DNA of 64,000 bases from Candidatus Aceula meridiana (GCA_030765185.1 JAVCDE010000024.1:42975-106974); one strand, 5' to 3'. Positions 17,753-50,462 are shown, numbered from the stretch's first letter. Numbers and translations: made by a program. The notes: generated from the sequence alone by a model not told the origin.

Positions 17753-18262
17753 ATGTTTCATGTTGTCATTTGCCAATCGTTTTCATATAATAGAAATATG
17801 AAAATAGAGCAAGTTGTTGCTAAAAAACTTATTCTTGGCCAAAAGACATTGACCTTGGCGGAGTCGTGCACCGGTGGCCTTATTGGTCATCGCCTAACAA
17901 GTATTTCTGGAAGTTCTCAATTTCTAAAAATTGGAATTGTTACGTATTCAAACGAAGCAAAAATTAAATTTCTAAAAGTCCCTCCTGCGACAATAAAAAA
18001 ATACGGGGCCGTAAGCGCGCAAACAGCCAAGGCTATGGCACGCGGAGCTCTTAACTTACTGAAAACTAATTATGCGCTTAGCGTTACCGGCATTGCCGGC
18101 CCGACAGGGGCAACAAAAGCAAAGCCTCTTGGTTTAACCTATATGGCTACCGCGTGCAAAGAAAAGACAATAGTAAGAAAATTTATTCTTAAAGGAACTC
18201 GTCGGCAAATAAAAGTACAAGCCTCAGAAAAAGCTCTTTCGCTGCTTAAAAAACTAATCTAA
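17753..18262 (+). CDS. CinA C-terminal-domain protein (nicotinamide-nucleotide amidohydrolase PncC-like)
   Basis: LAESCTGGLIGHRLT...SVTGIAGP motifs; likely true start MKIEQ at about 17798; one of only three plus-strand genes. Confidence 0.8.
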   Translation: MFHVVICQSFSYNRNMKIEQVVAKKLILGQKTLTLAESCTGGLIGHRLTSISGSSQFLKIGIVTYSNEAKIKFLKVPPATIKKYGAVSAQTAKAMARGALNLLKTNYALSVTGIAGPTGATKAKPLGLTYMATACKEKTIVRKFILKGTRRQIKVQASEKALSLLKKLI

Positions 18263-27735: not shown

Positions 27736-28743
27736 CTATTCCTGCAGAGCCCTCACACAATTGCGGCCATCAGCCTTGGCTTGATACAGGGCTTTATCAG
27801 CCAAATGAATAAAATCTTTAGTTGTTTTAGCCTTATTGATAGGATAGGATGTCACCCCGATACTTAAGGTATTGCTAATAATAACTTTCGGGGTGAGTTT
27901 AAATTTCTTGCCAAAAACACTCTCTCGAATACGCTCAGCAGCAACATGAGCGCCCTCCTTTTCAGTGCCGCCTAAGATGACCAAAAATTCATCTCCTCCA
28001 TAACGGCCAATTAAATCTGTCGTACGTAACAATTTTTTTAGAAAAATTGCCACTTGTTTAAGCATTTTATCGCCAATTTGATGACCAAAATTATCATTAA
28101 TCGGCTTAAAATAATCAATATCAATCATCAAGCAAGCCATTGGCTCATTATAACGCCGGCAGCGACTAAATTCTTCATCAAACCGATTTGTAATAGATTT
28201 ATGATTTAAAAGACCTGTCAAGCTATCTTCTCGAGCAACACGCTTGAGATAATTCTCTTTTTTCTTACGTCTGGTAATATCTTCAATAGTCACAATAATA
28301 CGAGAAAGAGCTTCTTCATCTTCATCTAACACAGCAACGCGAAGCCAAAGCTCATATCTCTTGCGATCTGCCCCTTGAGTTTTAAATTCTTTTTCAAAAA
28401 TTTTATCACCACTTGTAAGGGCAACAAACTCATCAATCAATACAAGGATGTCATTTTTAGTAAGTGTCTTACCAAAACGCTGTAAAAGCTCTTTCTTAGT
28501 TTTTGCTCCATAAAGATTAAGAGCAGCTTTATTTACATCAAGAACTTTTATCCCCTTGAAGGCACATTCAACAAGCTGCGAATTTTTAAGAAGATACTTG
28601 CGATAATTAATAACTTCCTGCTTCTTCAATTGTTCCAAAAGCTTCGCAAAACACGAAACATCCTCTTCCCATATCCCGATGGGTGAATTCTCAAAAATAA
28701 GCCTAAGCCTCTCGTACTCTTTATTATTATTCTTTATAGCCAT
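27736..28743 (-). CDS. Diguanylate cyclase (PAS-like N-terminus + GGDEF domain)
   Basis: 335 aa; RYGGDEF active-site motif, I-site RxxD present upstream (RTTD). Confidence 0.85.
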   Translation of the reverse strand: MAIKNNNKEYERLRLIFENSPIGIWEEDVSCFAKLLEQLKKQEVINYRKYLLKNSQLVECAFKGIKVLDVNKAALNLYGAKTKKELLQRFGKTLTKNDILVLIDEFVALTSGDKIFEKEFKTQGADRKRYELWLRVAVLDEDEEALSRIIVTIEDITRRKKKENYLKRVAREDSLTGLLNHKSITNRFDEEFSRCRRYNEPMACLMIDIDYFKPINDNFGHQIGDKMLKQVAIFLKKLLRTTDLIGRYGGDEFLVILGGTEKEGAHVAAERIRESVFGKKFKLTPKVIISNTLSIGVTSYPINKAKTTKDFIHLADKALYQAKADGRNCVRALQE

Positions 28744-38776: not shown

Positions 38777-38857
38777 AATAATATTAGTAAATAAAAAAAG
38801 ACAAGTGATTATAGCATACTCACCTGCCTTAAGACAACAATGCTTTACGATAGCTCT

Positions 38858-41800
38858 CTACTGCTTCCTTACCGTCGCCTCACCTAGTCGAGTTAGGCTC
38901 AAAGCCTCGTCTTCTGCTCCCTCTCCCTCATTTAAACCCATTAACATGTTAAAATTTGTAATCGGAATAATGTTAATAATAACAGGAACAAAACCCTCAG
39001 CTTGACTTAGCGTCGCTGCATCAATTTCAGGAATATTAAATGCTACGCCCTCGCCTTTGGTCTCGACCTCAAACCCATCTGCATCGAAATCAATGCCTCC
39101 GGGTTTTTGAATTGACGGGGAACCTGCGCGCCCATCGATACTGCTTTTAGGTTTCGTGGGGCTATTTCCCCCAGAGATTGAGGTGTGTTTTTCTATCGCG
39201 ATGGAAAAACCTTCGCTTGGGAAATCTATTGTCTCCATGCCTCGCATACCCAACCCTATGGCGTCACGAATAGCACGAAAACTTTCTGGCGAAATTAAAA
39301 CTATATCTGTCCCAATCTTATCCCTCCTTATCGAAGATAAAAGCTCTACATCTCGATTACCTCGACTTTCTTTTTTTAATCGCGTTAAAATATCTCCGCG
39401 CCCTTCGAGCATTTCTCTAACCTCGGAAAGATTAAAAGACCTTACCAGCTCTAAAATAAAATCTTCTAAGTCTTTCGCAAGACTTTCTAAAGAATCTTTT
39501 GATGACCTCTCCGTTTCTTTCTCTTTATTTAATACTTCAGCATAACGTGTCCAAGCATAATCATAGGCAGTTGCAGACCCAGTATCTCTTCCACCATAAA
39601 TAATCTTGGGAGAGTGCGTTTCACCCTCCGTAGAATTGACAATATTAGGATTGCCAAGACTATAGCGAAGATATAGGTCTCTTATCTTAGGATAATTCTC
39701 AAATTTAAGTTGGTCAGACCCTAAATCAATGATAAAAGCAGGAACAGCATCCCTCCCTCTCTTGGCTTCCATATATACTTTATGCCTTCCGCGCAAAATA
39801 TACGCCTCGTTGTCTTTTCCTAATTTCAATAAAAGAACCGGTGGGGCAGGAAGCCCTAATTTTTCTCGAATAAATGCCTTAATGCGAACAATATTTATTT
39901 GATAAAAATTTAAATTAAAATCCTGCTCGAAATAAATATTTTTAAGCGGAAATTCTAAGTCAACACTCTCTTTTACAAGCTTAGGATACTCGTCTTTTAG
40001 GTCATTTTTTAAAAGACTGCCTACGGCATTCCGCAAATTTTTCCACGTAAAATCAGTATTAATATTGTTTAAAACTTGATAATAATCTTTTTCCTCTAAA
40101 GGAATATCAACAATGTAATCATATCTTTTTCCGCGAGAATCTTCTTTCTCTCTGAAATCCCACTGTTTTAAAATTTCGACAACTTTCTTATTATCCGTAA
40201 TAACATCAATCTTTCCACCTTTCGACAAGCTCCAACGGCAACGATTAATGTAATCTAAAATATTTCTTTCATCATAGTCAGACGTTTCGGATAACGATAA
40301 AAAAGTAATATGATCAAACAGTACCTCTTCGGGTTGATCATAATTACCGCCTGCATAAAATGATGTTTCGCCAAGGTTCTGCTTAATAAATGTAATTCCT
40401 GAATTCTTCTTAAGCCCTTCCCGAATAAGATCTCCTTGAATATCATTTGCAATAATATATGCACCCTTTTCTCCGTATTCGTAATCATAAAATGAGCTTG
40501 TTTTTTCGCCCTCCCCCGCTCCAAAATCAAGGACAACTTTAACATTAGGATTGTTTTTTCGAAAAATATCAAGAAAATCCTCAAACAACATTGCCACCAA
40601 TGCGTACGGCTCCCTTTCAAAATTATTAATAGCCGTTTCTCGATCGCCATCTTTCTCTTCCAAAGAAATTCTAATAGCACAGCCAAAACGAAATGGGATA
40701 TAAACTTCATCCTCAAGCGTTACGACAACATGTTCTAAATCAACATACATTTCATTTAAAAAGAACTTTTGTTCCTCGCTCAAATATTCTTTAAGATTAG
40801 CAGCAAGAACATCCTTAGATAATAATTTTTTCCCAATTTCATAAAAATAAGAAAATAGTTTCGTCTTTTTACCATCCTCGATTAGATCAAATGTTCGTCT
40901 AATTGCAAAAATATCATTGGCGTTAGGAATACTAAAAGGAAAGTTCTTTCTAAGGAGTTCTGCCTCTTCCTTCAAAATACGCTCTGACATCCTGATAAAA
41001 TCCTGCATTCTGATAACAAGGCTTACCGGCATTGAATCGTGGCCAGGCGCCATTCCAATAGCAATAGCACGTCTTGCGAGACTAATAGACTTTTCATACT
41101 TTTTCATGTCAAAATATTTCTCAGCAATCTCAAAAGTAATTCTCGAACGAACGCCGTGGGGAGAAGCCTTGTCGAGTTTATTACGCAATGCCTTTATGTC
41201 CTCTAATATTCTTTTATTTTTCCTAGAAACCTTAAAATCTATGCTGTCCTCCTCGTCGTCTTCTTTCCCTTTTCTGCCTTTTAGGTTAAAAATTTCTTTC
41301 CCTTCCTCCAGAGAACTTATACCCCGAACAATATTCGTAAATATTTGGTTCGGGACAGAGCCAAAAACTTTATCCTGAAGACCTTGATAAAAAGTAACAG
41401 AGAATTTTTTCCGCTCATCGCTTCCGGCACCCCGTAGATAACGGTGGATTGAAATACCTTTTTCTTTTAATATCTTTGCAAATTTCTTACCTTCTTTTGT
41501 TCTTAAAAAGCCTTCACCCGATTCATGGAAAAATCCAATGCTAGAAAGAATGTTTTGGTCAAGATAAACTCGATTCTTTTCAATATTATGCAAACCTTTA
41601 ATGTTGTAAGAATTTTCTTTAAGAAGATAAATGTCCTGCCTTTCCGAATACCTAGCAATAGCTGTAGCGATTTCTAAATCCATTCCCGTAAGCTTTCTTA
41701 TTTTGATATTATCCTTAATATCCCGAACATAAATCTTTTTAGCAATATCTGAAACCTTGTCTCCAAATTCAATAAAATTAATCCCTATCCCCTCCTTATC

Positions 41801-43261
41801 GTAAATCTTGACTCCATTTTTTAAAGTTATCCCAATTTTATTATTACCGTATTCTTCGATTAAAATATCGCCCTCAAGAAGAGGAAATCCTTTTTGTGTG
41901 TAAAACGTTGAGTAAACTTTCCCAATAAGCCCTGACGGAATCTCTCCTGCTAATCCATCTTTTTCTATAAAAAAGTCATTACCAGAGATCTTATCTTTGT
42001 CAGTCATCACCTCAATATTCAGATTTGAATTCACAGCTTGACCTCTAGAAAGAAATTGTGTAATTTCAGATTTAATAAACGAAAATCGGTTTTTAGCAGC
42101 TGATGAAATAGCATCACCTTGCTGTTCATGGCTTAGCGCATCAACCTCTGTATAGTCAGAATTTTCAGATATGTCCATGTTAAAACCACCAGAGAAATAT
42201 TTTCTTGGAGTGTTTCTTTGCGTGTACCCATCATGCTCAACCCTAATTATGTCACAGACGCCCTTTTTAAAGGCCTCGAGATATCGGTTATAAATTTTCT
42301 TTGAAATTTCTCTATCCTCAACGTCCACCCCTTTAACTTTACTTTTATCCGCATAAACTTGGTTTAAAATTGTTTCCTTGAGATTTTTCTTAAACCAATA
42401 TGCCAAAATCAAGGAAGAATAAATTTGGCGCAAAGGGGCAAAATTCTTTCCCTCGTTAATTTCACGCTCAAGCTCAGGAATAATAATTTCACGCATAACG
42501 GAAGTAGCGGTATCTGAAGGATTGGAAACGTCTTCTGTAAATCTTGAAGTATTCAAATTTTTCCCTATGATACGGTTCGCTGCTCGTTGTTCATTGCTTG
42601 CTAGATAATCCTGCTCTAACATAACGCGCAATGATGACTCTACGACAAACGCACGGTCGCCATTCTCATAAACAACAGCTTTTTGCGGCACGATCCAAAC
42701 CTTATGAAAAGTATCAACGGGTATATCTGTAATACCATATTGTTCGTAGACTTTTTTATAAATCGTATCCCAAAATTTCTTACCTAATTCATCTTCAGGG
42801 GATATTAAAGAAGCTGTGACCTGCTTTAAGAGGTAGTCTTGCGCAAGCATATCCCGACCCATTTCTGTAGATCCAAAATTATTAGGAATAATAAGGTCTT
42901 TTTCATAGGGTGAAAGATTGACCCATAAATTATTTTCGGGAATAGTTAAAGAGGCCAAAAAATATTTGATAAGTTTTTCGCTTTCGGGCTTTAGCTCCTT
43001 ACCCGTAAGCCCCGTATCTCCAGAATCTAAAATAAAATCAAATTTAAGAGGGTTGTTGGGGTAGATTTTGATACCGCGTAATATGGCGGGTGCAAAACCT
43101 GGGCTTAAGGGGACCATTACACCCGGGCTTGGCAATCCCAACAACCCCGTATTCGCAAAGGCAGACGGCGGGACTACAGTTGTCCCCATGAAAACCATAA
43201 GGACAAAGAATACCCCTACTTTAAAAAATGTACTCTTTTTTATAATTTTATAAGTAAGCAT
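38858..43261 (-). CDS. Giant secreted/membrane-anchored protein (1467 aa) of unknown function with internal class-I SAM-MTase-like Rossmann domain
   Basis: Sec-type signal peptide (K-rich N-region, hydrophobic core, AFA-N). Residues ~960-1090 carry methyltransferase motif I VLDFGAGEG, an acidic beta2 end (ANDIQ), and motifs II/III (FDHITF, SLSKGGKID). The remainder is unrecognisable, with a Ser/Pro/Gly-rich linker and a short hydrophobic C-terminal segment (FVPVIINIIPITNF). Own terminator upstream and strong coding signal throughout. Confidence 0.7.
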   Translation of the reverse strand: MLTYKIIKKSTFFKVGVFFVLMVFMGTTVVPPSAFANTGLLGLPSPGVMVPLSPGFAPAILRGIKIYPNNPLKFDFILDSGDTGLTGKELKPESEKLIKYFLASLTIPENNLWVNLSPYEKDLIIPNNFGSTEMGRDMLAQDYLLKQVTASLISPEDELGKKFWDTIYKKVYEQYGITDIPVDTFHKVWIVPQKAVVYENGDRAFVVESSLRVMLEQDYLASNEQRAANRIIGKNLNTSRFTEDVSNPSDTATSVMREIIIPELEREINEGKNFAPLRQIYSSLILAYWFKKNLKETILNQVYADKSKVKGVDVEDREISKKIYNRYLEAFKKGVCDIIRVEHDGYTQRNTPRKYFSGGFNMDISENSDYTEVDALSHEQQGDAISSAAKNRFSFIKSEITQFLSRGQAVNSNLNIEVMTDKDKISGNDFFIEKDGLAGEIPSGLIGKVYSTFYTQKGFPLLEGDILIEEYGNNKIGITLKNGVKIYDKEGIGINFIEFGDKVSDIAKKIYVRDIKDNIKIRKLTGMDLEIATAIARYSERQDIYLLKENSYNIKGLHNIEKNRVYLDQNILSSIGFFHESGEGFLRTKEGKKFAKILKEKGISIHRYLRGAGSDERKKFSVTFYQGLQDKVFGSVPNQIFTNIVRGISSLEEGKEIFNLKGRKGKEDDEEDSIDFKVSRKNKRILEDIKALRNKLDKASPHGVRSRITFEIAEKYFDMKKYEKSISLARRAIAIGMAPGHDSMPVSLVIRMQDFIRMSERILKEEAELLRKNFPFSIPNANDIFAIRRTFDLIEDGKKTKLFSYFYEIGKKLLSKDVLAANLKEYLSEEQKFFLNEMYVDLEHVVVTLEDEVYIPFRFGCAIRISLEEKDGDRETAINNFEREPYALVAMLFEDFLDIFRKNNPNVKVVLDFGAGEGEKTSSFYDYEYGEKGAYIIANDIQGDLIREGLKKNSGITFIKQNLGETSFYAGGNYDQPEEVLFDHITFLSLSETSDYDERNILDYINRCRWSLSKGGKIDVITDNKKVVEILKQWDFREKEDSRGKRYDYIVDIPLEEKDYYQVLNNINTDFTWKNLRNAVGSLLKNDLKDEYPKLVKESVDLEFPLKNIYFEQDFNLNFYQINIVRIKAFIREKLGLPAPPVLLLKLGKDNEAYILRGRHKVYMEAKRGRDAVPAFIIDLGSDQLKFENYPKIRDLYLRYSLGNPNIVNSTEGETHSPKIIYGGRDTGSATAYDYAWTRYAEVLNKEKETERSSKDSLESLAKDLEDFILELVRSFNLSEVREMLEGRGDILTRLKKESRGNRDVELLSSIRRDKIGTDIVLISPESFRAIRDAIGLGMRGMETIDFPSEGFSIAIEKHTSISGGNSPTKPKSSIDGRAGSPSIQKPGGIDFDADGFEVETKGEGVAFNIPEIDAATLSQAEGFVPVIINIIPITNFNMLMGLNEGEGAEDEALSLTRLGEATVRKQ

Positions 43262-43392: not shown

Positions 43393-43435
43393 TGTAAAAT
43401 TAAGGGCAGCTTGCACTTACGCAAGCTGCCCTTAA
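43393..43435 (-). terminator. Rho-independent terminator after the small membrane protein gene
   Basis: Perfect 15-bp stem TTAAGGGCAGCTTGC/GCAAGCTGCCCTTAA with 6-nt loop, followed on the minus strand by TTTTAC. Confidence 0.55.
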
Positions 43436-43458: not shown

Positions 43459-43710
43459 TTATGCCTTAGCTAGTTTATTGTACAGCCACGCTAGCGCAAC
43501 ACCCCCGATTCCTGCATCGGCAAAGCCCCAAGCGGCCCCAATCAAGCTTCCTAAAATAGTTGGTTTATATCCTATATACAAACTTGCCATCATTTTACTA
43601 AGCTCCGAACCCCATCCACAGAAAATATTAATAATTCCTAAAATAAGCATTACCGCTGCCCACAAAATACCGCAAGCTAACCCAAAAGCTTTAACATCTA
43701 ACTTTGCCAT
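43459..43710 (-). CDS. Small hydrophobic protein (83 aa) with two TM helices and GxxxG motifs
   Basis: ORF with hydrophobic helices (GLACGILWAAVMLILGII; GSLIGAAWGFADAGIGGVALAWL); insulated from the giant gene by a terminator. Confidence 0.45.
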   Translation of the reverse strand: MAKLDVKAFGLACGILWAAVMLILGIINIFCGWGSELSKMMASLYIGYKPTILGSLIGAAWGFADAGIGGVALAWLYNKLAKA

Positions 43711-43808: not shown

Positions 43809-44411
43809 TTAGTTTTTCCCTTTATTCTCAAAATGAACAAAATCAATTAAGAAAACGCTACCCAAAACAAGAGCTTTTTGTTTTATGTCGAACATCGATG
43901 GAAATTCAACGGTAAAATTATCCGCATCCGTCATCGCCTCTTTTAAAATACCACTCCATCGCTTGACAATCTTTCCAACTCTCTCAGAATTCTTTTCGAT
44001 ATAAAATGTCCAAGGATGAATCCAAGGACCAATAATCTGAAAAGTCTCATCTCCGTTAGAATCGCATACAACATAAACACGCTTTAACAAACAAAACTTA
44101 CGCTGAATTCTACCAACCATATAGTGATTAGAATCCATGATAAGCATGCTTGAAAAAAAGAAACGAAAAGGTCTCTTTAGGAAAAGAACATTCTGCTGCG
44201 CGTCATTGGCAATAATCATGTCAAAAGGACGCATTGCCCGTAAAAAAATCCGCAAAAGAAAATTGCCGCCTACTTCGGCGGCATAAAAAAGAGTCCTTCC
44301 CATATCATCTTCGACTTCATAGCGGTTCTTTGTTTCAATCCCACTTAAAATCTCGCCCCACTCTTTTCTCTGACGAACAACCAAAGACTCGATACCTTGA
44401 AGTTGCTCCAT
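43809..44411 (-). CDS. Phospholipid scramblase family protein (PLSCR / tubby-like fold, bacterial homologue)
   Basis: 200 aa; C-terminal KRWSGILKEAMTDADNFTVEFPSMFDIKQKALVLGSVFLIDFVHFE aligns closely with the eukaryotic PLSCR1 C-terminus ([22 protein letters not shown]...KAVMIGACFLIDFMFFE). Confidence 0.7.
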   Translation of the reverse strand: MEQLQGIESLVVRQRKEWGEILSGIETKNRYEVEDDMGRTLFYAAEVGGNFLLRIFLRAMRPFDMIIANDAQQNVLFLKRPFRFFFSSMLIMDSNHYMVGRIQRKFCLLKRVYVVCDSNGDETFQIIGPWIHPWTFYIEKNSERVGKIVKRWSGILKEAMTDADNFTVEFPSMFDIKQKALVLGSVFLIDFVHFENKGKN

Positions 44412-49192: not shown

Positions 49193-49906
49193 TTATGGAT
49201 TAATAACTTGAAAAGTGCTCATATTAACTTCGTTGTTTGGACGGATACGCTGATAATACCATTTGTCGTCTGATGCAGAATAAATCAATTTCTTGTTTCC
49301 AGAAACTGTAATCGTCGATCCAGAGGCTCTATCGACAGTAAGGCTATATCCAGAATCCGGTTTAATTAAAAGCGTCCCACTCTTGGGGCGATAGATAATA
49401 CCATTAATGCCATCTGCCCACTCATCAACATCAAGACCTAAATCCCGCAAAGCATTTTTCCAACCATTACGAGGATAATTCCCGTTCGTAGCATAATAAG
49501 CATTAATAAAATCAATGAATCCTTGAGAAATTTCAGTAAACGTAGATCCTAAGCTCGTTAAAGCCTCAGCTCCCGTATGGATAGAACACCCTAAAATACT
49601 TTGATAGCTTGGGCTGTTCGCTGGATAAGGAATCCAGGCATAAACCCCCTTATTCGGACACTCTGGAAGACTAAGCAAATAACCACTGTCAACCAGATCA
49701 GAAAGCCCGATTGAATGAACTCCCTTATCTCCAAAATAAAAAAGCTCAGCTTCTTGAATCTGGCGTCTAGCCTGTGTACATGCAGCGTCTTCAGCTGTCT
49801 GACGGTTACGAACCACTGCCTGGATGGCCACATTCGCTGCTAAAAGCGATATGACCATCAAGACAACCATCAACTCAACTAATGTAAAACCTTTTTTTAA
49901 ATTCAT
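49193..49906 (-). CDS. Prepilin-type N-terminal cleavage/methylation domain protein (type IV pilin / pseudopilin-like)
   Basis: Class-III signal MNLKKGFTLVELMVVLMVISLLAA (G-F-T-L-x-E motif); the ORF track extends upstream to 49999 but the pilin start at about 49906 is the plausible one. Confidence 0.7.
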   Translation of the reverse strand: MNLKKGFTLVELMVVLMVISLLAANVAIQAVVRNRQTAEDAACTQARRQIQEAELFYFGDKGVHSIGLSDLVDSGYLLSLPECPNKGVYAWIPYPANSPSYQSILGCSIHTGAEALTSLGSTFTEISQGFIDFINAYYATNGNYPRNGWKNALRDLGLDVDEWADGINGIIYRPKSGTLLIKPDSGYSLTVDRASGSTITVSGNKKLIYSASDDKWYYQRIRPNNEVNMSTFQVINP

Positions 49907-49913
49907 ATTCTCT

Positions 49914-50462
49914 TTAACCAACAACACCCATACTTGCTGCAGGAGCAATAACAAGCATCGAAATAATAGTAATAACAACTGCTTGGATAACCCACCCAAT
50001 TAAACAAACACCTACGGCACGAATCGTGCTCGTGTAATCAAGGGCTTGACGCACAGCTATAACCATAGCACCCAGCATCCAAAGTCCAGCAATTGTAAAA
50101 ATTATCGGTGCAAAACCAGGGATAATTCCAAAAATACGTAAAACCCCAGGAGCGCTTGCAAAACCAAGAGTGCGTAAAAGTTGTCCTACGTCAGCTTTTG
50201 TCTCTGGCTCCGGCAATATTTTTGTCCCAATAAAAAATACTAAATAAGCCCAAACAAACCATCCAACCAAAGCAGCAACAAGGCCAATAATAACTCCGCC
50301 TATGCCTGCAATAGCAATATTTCCAATGCCAGCTGCCAAACTCGCAAGAAGAACAACGAGCATTGACTCTTGCAGTAGGCTTTTATCCGCTTCGACCTCT
50401 TCGTAAAGAGTCTTGTCAAACTTAGCTGCACGCAGCATTCTTTCAAGAAACTTCGGTAACAT
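49914..50462 (-). CDS. Yip1-domain family membrane protein
   Basis: 182 aa, about 5 TM helices, Gly-rich helices typical of the Yip1/DUF1282 family. Confidence 0.55.
   Translation of the reverse strand: MLPKFLERMLRAAKFDKTLYEEVEADKSLLQESMLVVLLASLAAGIGNIAIAGIGGVIIGLVAALVGWFVWAYLVFFIGTKILPEPETKADVGQLLRTLGFASAPGVLRIFGIIPGFAPIIFTIAGLWMLGAMVIAVRQALDYTSTIRAVGVCLIGWVIQAVVITIISMLVIAPAASMGVVG

Follow-up and report, generated by a model that had tools for sequence, protein, structure and literature searches.

The stretch of DNA analysed here, 64,000 nucleotides from Candidatus Aceula meridiana (GCA_030765185.1 JAVCDE010000024.1:42975-106974; hereafter, the window), carries a complete open reading frame (ORF) of 1467 codons plus a stop, at 38858..43261 on the minus strand, whose product belongs to a very large protein family with constant ends and an exchanged middle. 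Sequence comparison indicates that the members are laid out as a signal peptide, an N-terminal module (N-module) of about 320 amino acids (aa), a variable cargo, a low-complexity linker, a C-terminal module (C-module) of about 65 aa and a short acidic tail, and the family is apparently restricted to the phylum Omnitrophota. We lean, with moderate confidence, towards reading the ORF as one paralogue of this modular family, in which an exported enzyme payload would be carried by handling modules common to all members.

The reading frame runs without interruption and is the longest in the window, as the first-pass annotation of this DNA had noted (1467 aa, against 967 aa for the second longest). 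Its product matches MDP8266038.1 (hypothetical protein P9M07_03735) at 100% identity, an entry from the metagenome-assembled genome of Candidatus Aceula meridiana, phylum Omnitrophota, and this agrees with the same annotation's mention of an uncultivated lineage known for very large proteins. At full length, the protein has no match in Pfam or NCBIfam, even at E ≤ 1.

The Constant Ends and Their Family

A search of 5.8 billion protein clusters, in which 8000 candidates were scored, found 3484 proteins that match the ORF protein at E ≤ 1e-3, and all of the named ones are from Omnitrophota. The matching proteins are 800 to 2500 aa long, yet they cover only around 23 to 30% of the query, at 50 to 63% identity. 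Local BLAST and pair comparisons among 120 proteins, namely the ORF protein and 119 other listed matches, located the similarity at the two ends. Residues 1-360 were aligned in all 119 other matches (50 to 63% identity) and residues ~1380-1450 in 101 of them, while between the end modules there were matches in P0002 and P0003 only, plus two short pieces in P0005. Thus, the protein had been taken for an orphan, and it turns out to have the same first ~360 and last ~80 residues as more than 3,400 others.

The middle behaves very differently from the ends. N-module identity lies between 45 and 90% across all 7140 pairs of the 120 proteins, whereas at least 30% of the middle is common to only 33 of these pairs, so that the middles are unrelated in more than 99% of them. 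Even where the N-modules are at least 80% identical (27 pairs), the middles are unrelated in 19 cases. Because the ends hold 45 to 90% identity while the cargo is unrelated, we take the end modules to be the constant part, conserved and selected as far as sequences can tell, and the cargo to be the part that is swapped. Two pairs, P0026/P0033 and P0041/P0070, have N-modules that are 87 to 92% identical and unrelated middles, which suggests that the cargo was recently exchanged or that the N-module underwent gene conversion.

The cargo is varied in kind as well. Pfam domains are given for around 43 of the 120 matches and represent more than 25 families, by a count from the match table. They include GNAT, several methyltransferase families, Ser/Thr kinase (Pkinase) with PP2C, HATPase_c, response regulator and PFK with iPGM, and further PGK, PPDK, isocitrate dehydrogenase, acyl-CoA dehydrogenase, M48 with ABC1 kinase, NUDIX, HAD, HEAT and WD40, among others. 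In contigs that represent one genome per species, there are at least 593 loci encoding an N-module; the best 80 of these are spread over 51 assemblies, none of which contributes more than 5. Candidatus Aceula meridiana itself has at least 5 family members, and no second copy was found within the 64-kb window.

The ORF protein shows the whole layout, with a Sec-type signal ahead of an N-module, a C-module no more than about 100 residues from the end and a middle of its own. The positions that follow, and those of all other parts of this protein, are on the minus strand. Its N-module (residues 37-360, 42182..43153) is marked by LxLPxPGxMVxLSPxFxP…WVNLSPYE…LAQDYLLKQ…RKYFSGG. A Ser/Pro/Gly/Lys-rich linker, recognised by reading the sequence, follows the cargo (residues 1362-1385, 39107..39178; predicted local distance difference test, pLDDT, below 50), and then comes the C-module (residues 1386-1448, 38918..39106), which reads GGIDx…G.G..F..P…GFxPVIINIxPxTNxxxLxG in this protein and GGIDLNPxxLxxxxxGxGxxFxxP…IxGFxPVIINIxPxTNLPxLLG, over about 65 aa, in the family consensus. 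Family statistics set apart the last residues (1449-1467, 38861..38917) as an acidic tail with an "LS" motif: after the C-module, the tails have a median length of 16 aa, contain 438 acidic and 245 basic residues in total and show motifs of the "LS" type in 69 of 97 cases. The linker and a short hydrophobic C-terminal segment (GFVPVIINIIPITNFNMLMGL) had both been noticed before, and both are present; however, the segment is not a private anchor of this protein, since it belongs to the conserved module of ~65 aa.

Neither end module has a Pfam or NCBIfam relative at permissive thresholds, nor a relative in the PDB. The C-terminal 100 aa have no NCBIfam or Pfam match other than DUF7348, which is below threshold (E 0.015). 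A comparison with PHROGs gave two weak, uninformative matches. In our second AlphaFold2 (AF2) model, the C-module has a pLDDT below 50 despite the 20 homologous fragments supplied, and no helix is predicted in it. The module may need a partner for folding, which is one of several possible reasons for such low values. One might also speculate that its invariant GG is the double-glycine site of a C39 peptidase, although the upstream leader consensus is absent. No description of the end modules was found in the library that we searched, which is incomplete, and an earlier description is possible. The family appears to be undescribed so far, and the ORF as such is an ordinary member of it.

The Cargo of the ORF Protein

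The first-pass annotation had counted about 900 residues after the signal peptide as matching no family. This is only partly true, because the first ~320 of these are the best-conserved region of a very large family. A word-index search with the middle found it in P0002 and P0003 only, and an exhaustive HMMER search over 1.84 billion representatives found 23 proteins that match it and resolve it into four modules, which we call A, H, B and C.

Module A (residues ~436-650, 41312..41956) is predicted with a pLDDT of 80 to 98 and would have a fold without a known relative. It is common to around 15 proteins of 576 to 4600 aa, and in an alignment (A6) the near-invariant residues are YDK…FHExxE…HxYLRG…GLQDxxFG. 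There is no significant PDB sequence match, no Pfam match and, among the Foldseek matches listed from the PDB, none better than E 3e-3. The conserved set of His, Glu, His and Asp suggests a metal-dependent enzyme. Four of the proteins with module A (P0122, P0124, P0138 and P0140, of 2 to 4.6 thousand aa) are without the N- and C-modules described above and have another C-terminus in common, …[KR]KI…E…L[QR][AS]L, a sign that there may be a further end-module family.

Module H (residues ~680-770, 40952..41224) is a helical bundle resembling TPR and MIT domains. Module B, at residues ~780-1060 (40082..40924), has a core (895-1060) that resembles the Rossmann fold of methyltransferases and is treated below. 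Module C (residues ~1100-1290, 39392..39964) has an AF2 pLDDT below 57 and no Pfam match; it is absent from P0003 and common to P0005, P0133 and P0141. The likeness of its PPVLLLKLG…AYILRGRHK stretch to a ParB/Srx-like motif finds no support in Pfam or in the low-confidence model, and we do not claim it. The cargo modules of the ORF protein recur in other Omnitrophota proteins, both multi-enzyme proteins and those of 2 to 4.6 thousand aa.

An alignment of mixed modules for structure prediction (A3) was rejected, as MAFFT placed pieces of modules B and C on module A or on the C-module, and the same happened in local MAFFT tests with other fragment sets. For this reason, the alignment for the second AF2 run (A4) was limited to orthologs and trimmed fragments of module A and the C-module, and its shallowness is probably why the pLDDT of modules B and C is moderate or low.

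Module B as a Divergent Methyltransferase Fold

The middle had also been said to contain a clear class-I methyltransferase dependent on S-adenosylmethionine (SAM). We found the expected motif I, VLDFGAGEG, at residues 910-918 (40508..40534), followed by IIAND and by the aspartate D940 at the end of β2. In an alignment of six module-B homologs (A5), the loop glycine, D940 and several core residues are invariant, so the SAM-binding residues asked about, in the motif I loop and the acidic end of β2, are intact. When the domain is excised and compared with Pfam, five families appear below threshold, four of which are methyltransferase domain families; the best, Methyltransf_23, reaches E 0.006 and 16.8 bits against a cut-off of 27. 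Curated profiles for class-I methyltransferases give no match above the gathering score, whether with the full-length protein or with the excised domain. A profile made from the six sequences has as its best PDB match the SAM methyltransferase 1wzn (E 0.073); the alignment runs from motif I to β4 and places VLDFGAGEG and D940 on the corresponding motifs.

Structure prediction agrees with this assignment. In the AF2 model of the core (pLDDT 54 to 86), β-strands and α-helices alternate in the canonical order up to a final β6-β7 hairpin, and almost all of the 50 best Foldseek matches in the PDB are class-I SAM methyltransferases, including fibrillarin, BchU, SAMTOR, TrmN, NNMT and Bud23 (probability up to 0.99, E 3e-3 to 0.1). 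Judging by the pattern of strands and helices, these matches would belong to residues ~895-1060. When module B was compared by hhalign with the part of paralogue P0013 that Pfam recognises as a methyltransferase, only 23 columns could be aligned (probability 78%), which does not decide the matter, and a word-index search with the module-B profile found P0135 only. This is a stand-alone protein of 270 aa, and module B is present in P0121 and P0131 as well. P0121, a fragment of 1684 aa, has Enolase_C, then module B and then PEP-utilizers_C, as in a multi-enzyme polypeptide of the glycolysis type.

Compared with known class-I SAM methyltransferases (1wzn, fibrillarin 1fbn, BchU 1x19 and SAMTOR 7vkq), module B has the same GxGxG loop after β1, the same acidic end of β2 and the predicted order β1-αA-β2-αB-β3…β4-αD-β5-αE-β6-β7. 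It differs from them in scoring below every Pfam gathering threshold, in having no recognisable substrate-binding parts and in standing within an apparently exported mosaic of 1467 aa. We therefore conclude, from weak but consistent sequence support and a model, that module B is a divergent class-I methyltransferase fold with its cofactor-binding motifs intact; motif I, D940 and the predicted fold uphold the original assignment, and the word "clear" overstated it, given that no family match is above threshold. The fold alone does not establish catalysis, because some of its members, such as SAMTOR, are SAM sensors and not enzymes. Module B may transfer methyl groups or may only bind SAM or S-adenosylhomocysteine (SAH).

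Export, Topology and Assembly

The first 36 residues (43154..43261) read as a Sec-type signal peptide, with a K-rich n-region, a hydrophobic core at V15-V30, a c-region PPSAFA and a predicted cleavage site at A36/N37. The classical Sec signal claimed for this protein is thus recognisable by heuristic reading, with 4 Lys and no acidic residue ahead of the core and PPSAFA|N after it, and the pattern is family-wide. On average, the signal peptides of the family have +3.6/-0.4 charges ahead of the h-region, and in 70 of the 78 members that could be anchored an A-x-A or AxAQ motif immediately precedes the conserved LxLPxPG with which the N-module begins. Two other identities were considered and rejected, namely Tat export, as there is no twin-arginine (RR) motif, and a lipoprotein, as there is no lipobox Cys. 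Apart from the signal peptide, the only hydrophobic segment is in the C-module. The protein is probably exported through Sec.

In the reading that we favour, the signal would be cut after Ala36, and the conserved N- and C-modules would be handling parts recognised by a common partner. This partner could take the proteins past the inner membrane, anchor or assemble them at the envelope, or pass them on to a host or prey cell. The payload would be the middle, which may bind SAM and methylate a target outside the cytoplasm of the producer, or may merely sense SAM/SAH on it. It is conceivable, if on the doubtful side, that the end modules amount to an unrecognised handling system specific to the phylum, used for enzyme export and delivery to the surface, host or prey, or for head-to-tail docking into a multi-enzyme coat. 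In its export and delivery form, such a system would carry dozens of enzymes per cell, including methyltransferases, kinases and even glycolytic enzymes.

Several points weigh against this explanation. Export is read from sequence heuristics. The N-module is modelled with moderate confidence only and the C-module is not confidently folded when taken alone, and the models give no structural clue to function. No secretion or assembly machinery adjoins the ORF, and the absence of the family from the literature could not be shown beyond the library searched. Moreover, many cargos of the family, including the SAM-dependent domain, need cytoplasmic cofactors such as SAM and ATP, and placing them in the periplasm makes little sense unless another cell is reached, because there would be no cofactor supply there. 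There are three possible ways out of this problem. The proteins may reach another cell, which would fit the predatory or parasitic lifestyle proposed for Omnitrophota; the topology prediction may be wrong, with the proteins facing the cytoplasm; or the domains may have been repurposed as binding modules.

The second of these ways out leads to an alternative explanation, in which the end modules would gather enzymes of metabolism and signalling into assemblies at the membrane, as parts of a membrane-tethered scaffold on the cytoplasmic side. It would account for a cargo of classic cytoplasmic, cofactor-dependent enzymes (the SAM methyltransferase here and, among the paralogues, PFK, PGK, PPDK, kinases and response regulators). 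Moreover, for many of the long proteins of Omnitrophota, which have the same Pfam repertoire, a 2026 preprint argues that the enzymatic parts face the cytoplasm (10.64898/2026.06.07.730766). Nevertheless, we consider such a scaffold unlikely. The four Lys and no acidic residue ahead of the hydrophobic core, and the small-x-small site that follows this core directly in 70 of 78 members, argue against it, since a Lys-rich n-region plus an A-x-A/AxAQ site predicts N-in/C-out insertion and cleavage with the bulk of the protein outside. Furthermore, the only other hydrophobic stretch is that of the C-module, which is rich in Pro and Asn and is not helical in the AF2 model.

A further possibility concerns what the ends do for each other. 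The C-module of one member could dock into the N-module of another, or both could dock onto a shared scaffold, and the result would be a non-covalent multi-enzyme coat of the envelope, a "split" counterpart of the covalent giant proteins of Omnitrophota. The two ends do occur together in 101 of the 119 other matches, under a constraint much stronger than that on the cargo, and a C-module that is not predicted to fold alone is what one would expect of a segment that folds on binding. Cargo modules are also common to proteins of 2 to 4.6 thousand aa, the domain repertoire is common to the giants, and two members stand in tandem at one locus (L001). However, an interaction between N- and C-modules is purely conjectural, low pLDDT has many other causes, and co-occurrence is equally expected if one machinery reads both ends as signals. 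Thus, we regard head-to-tail assembly as quite improbable.

Genomic Neighbourhood

The first-pass annotation had set the protein between cyclic di-GMP (c-di-GMP) enzymes, as a giant orphan whose surface or adhesion function would be controlled by c-di-GMP, with the downstream phosphodiesterase gene as its partner. The genes on which this idea was built are where they had been reported. A gene with GAF and HD_5 (HD-GYP) domains lies 81 nt downstream of the ORF on the same strand, and a GGDEF gene (27736..28743) lies around 10 kb away. In addition, PilZ genes have been found downstream of giant Omnitrophota genes by West-Roberts et al. (10.1101/2023.11.21.568195).

The loci of the two orthologs bear on this question. 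P0002 (64% identity) is followed by the same GAF/HD-GYP gene, while the locus of P0003 (44% overall identity; L001:8001-18702, GCA_028693815.1) has no HD-GYP gene nearby, so that the pairing is kept in the closer relative and lost in the more distant one. At the P0002 locus, conservation extends from the HD-GYP gene to YchF and DUF4139, and for this reason, the adjacency looks like plain synteny of close relatives. A promoter-like site, TTGTCT-18-TATAAT with a TG extended -10 (38808..38837, minus strand), lies in the 81-nt gap, and the GAF/HD-GYP gene may therefore be transcribed separately from the ORF. As for the GGDEF gene, it is set apart from the ORF by unrelated housekeeping genes, the genes in between being those for iPGM, a polysaccharide deacetylase, a PMT-type glycosyltransferase, a MORN protein, DUF4139 and YchF. 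The protein itself is not an orphan, and Pfam and NCBIfam recognise in it no PilZ, degenerate GGDEF/EAL, MshEN or other c-di-GMP-binding domain at E ≤ 1, and no adhesin-type domain or repeat. The link to c-di-GMP rests on adjacency alone; control by it, or an adhesion function, is not supported and seems to us very unlikely. In the reading that we favour, the HD-GYP gene would be a lineage-specific neighbour outside the system. At the L001 locus, P0003 stands just downstream of a prepilin peptidase gene (A24) and directly upstream of P0104, a family member of 2178 aa with a PPDK cargo.

The fear that the ORF is an artefact of assembly or annotation, a frameshift fusion or chimeric join of several genes as its unusual length, mosaic make-up and the slightly lower GC content at 40-42 kb (0.347) might suggest, can be laid to rest with near certainty, because the frame is uninterrupted, P0002 (1448 aa) is colinear with the protein from residue 1 to the end in two independent Logan assemblies, and the N- and C-modules lie exactly at the protein ends, as in around 100 other members. 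P0003 is without residues ~1065-1335 of the ORF protein.

The perfect 15-bp hairpin reported upstream of the ORF is also present, with the loop GUAAGU and followed by UUUU (TTTT in the DNA), at 43393..43435 on the minus strand (hairpin 43400..43435; folding free energy -28.6 kcal/mol, z -6.0). It is a probable intrinsic terminator of the upstream gene, which has a strong AGGAGGGG ribosome-binding site and encodes a small hydrophobic protein of 83 aa (43459..43710, minus strand) without a Pfam match. A simple terminator scan did not detect the hairpin, presumably because the T-run is short.

The surroundings of the ORF are ordinary chromosomal housekeeping genes, and all real genes of the window are on the minus strand. 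The 49 non-overlapping ORFs of at least 150 aa are likewise all on this strand except 17753..18262, and the GC skew is negative in every 2-kb bin, a pattern that fits a single replichore with an extreme leading-strand gene bias. A protein of 200 aa with a strong match to the Scramblase family (PF03803, E 1.9e-47) is encoded at 43809..44411 (minus strand), adjoining NifU, NifS and NadA genes. Around 6 kb upstream of the ORF, at 49193..49999 (minus strand), there is a gene for a protein with a prokaryotic N-terminal methylation motif, as in type IV pilins. A Pfam scan of 30 neighbouring ORFs, all above ~16 kb, revealed no other gene related to pili or secretion.

Comparison with Known Systems

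Catalogues of giant Omnitrophota proteins report the same domain repertoire, with mostly membrane or extracytoplasmic topologies (10.1101/2023.11.21.568195; 10.64898/2026.06.07.730766). The ORF family and these giants, whether of the Archaeovorin type or other, are found in the same phylum and share a mosaic of divergent methyltransferase, GNAT, HATPase_c, HAD, PPDK, NUDIX and HEAT/TPR domains; N-terminal signal peptides are frequent among the giants, and module A of the ORF protein is common to proteins of 2 to 4.6 thousand aa. On the other hand, the ORF protein is 20 to 100 times shorter and has no array of transmembrane helices, and its conserved N- and C-modules are described in neither paper. 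Archaeovorin-type proteins are defined by a gene of more than 90 kb, many transmembrane helices and SecA-like, C39 or S8 domains, whereas the ORF measures 4.4 kb and encodes no such Pfam domains.

Cargo proteins of the type IX secretion system (T9SS) combine a Sec signal peptide and variable functional domains with a conserved C-terminal domain of around 80 aa. The likeness to the ORF family lies in the N-terminal Sec signal, the interchangeable domains and the small conserved module at the very end. The differences are the absence of a Pfam or NCBIfam match to the T9SS domain, the additional large N-module and the other phylum, and NCBIfam and Pfam recognise no T9SS C-terminal sorting domain in the ORF protein. 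There is no Pfam match, either, to an autotransporter (type V secretion) β-barrel or an anchor of the YadA type; the protein ends in the C-module of ~65 aa and then the acidic, non-aromatic tail.

The polymorphic toxins (Rhs, CdiA and MafB; Zhang et al. 2012, PMC3482391) offer another parallel, since they join a constant trafficking part to highly variable cassettes, just as near-identical constant regions are joined to unrelated variable regions in the ORF family. However, the variable part of the ORF family is central and not C-terminal, and it is dominated by metabolic and signalling enzymes of the housekeeping type instead of nucleases or deaminases. The gene after the ORF is the GAF/HD-GYP one and not an immunity-like gene, and at the P0003 locus the next gene is that of another family member.

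Implications for Omnitrophota

Omnitrophota are widespread nanobacteria that are suspected of being predators or parasites, and no feature of theirs is more discussed, or less understood, than their giant proteins. Thousands of family proteins of 0.8 to 3 thousand aa that hold the enzyme repertoire of the giants between strongly conserved, unannotated ends provide a tractable handle on this problem, given that the end modules are small enough to be expressed, to have their structures solved and to be used as bait for the partner machinery. As profile hidden Markov models, the N-module, the C-module and module A could cover thousands of "hypothetical proteins". If export is true, the cargo list would serve as an inventory of what these cells send beyond their own cytoplasm, and the export of enzymes of the cytoplasmic type would point to delivery into another cell.

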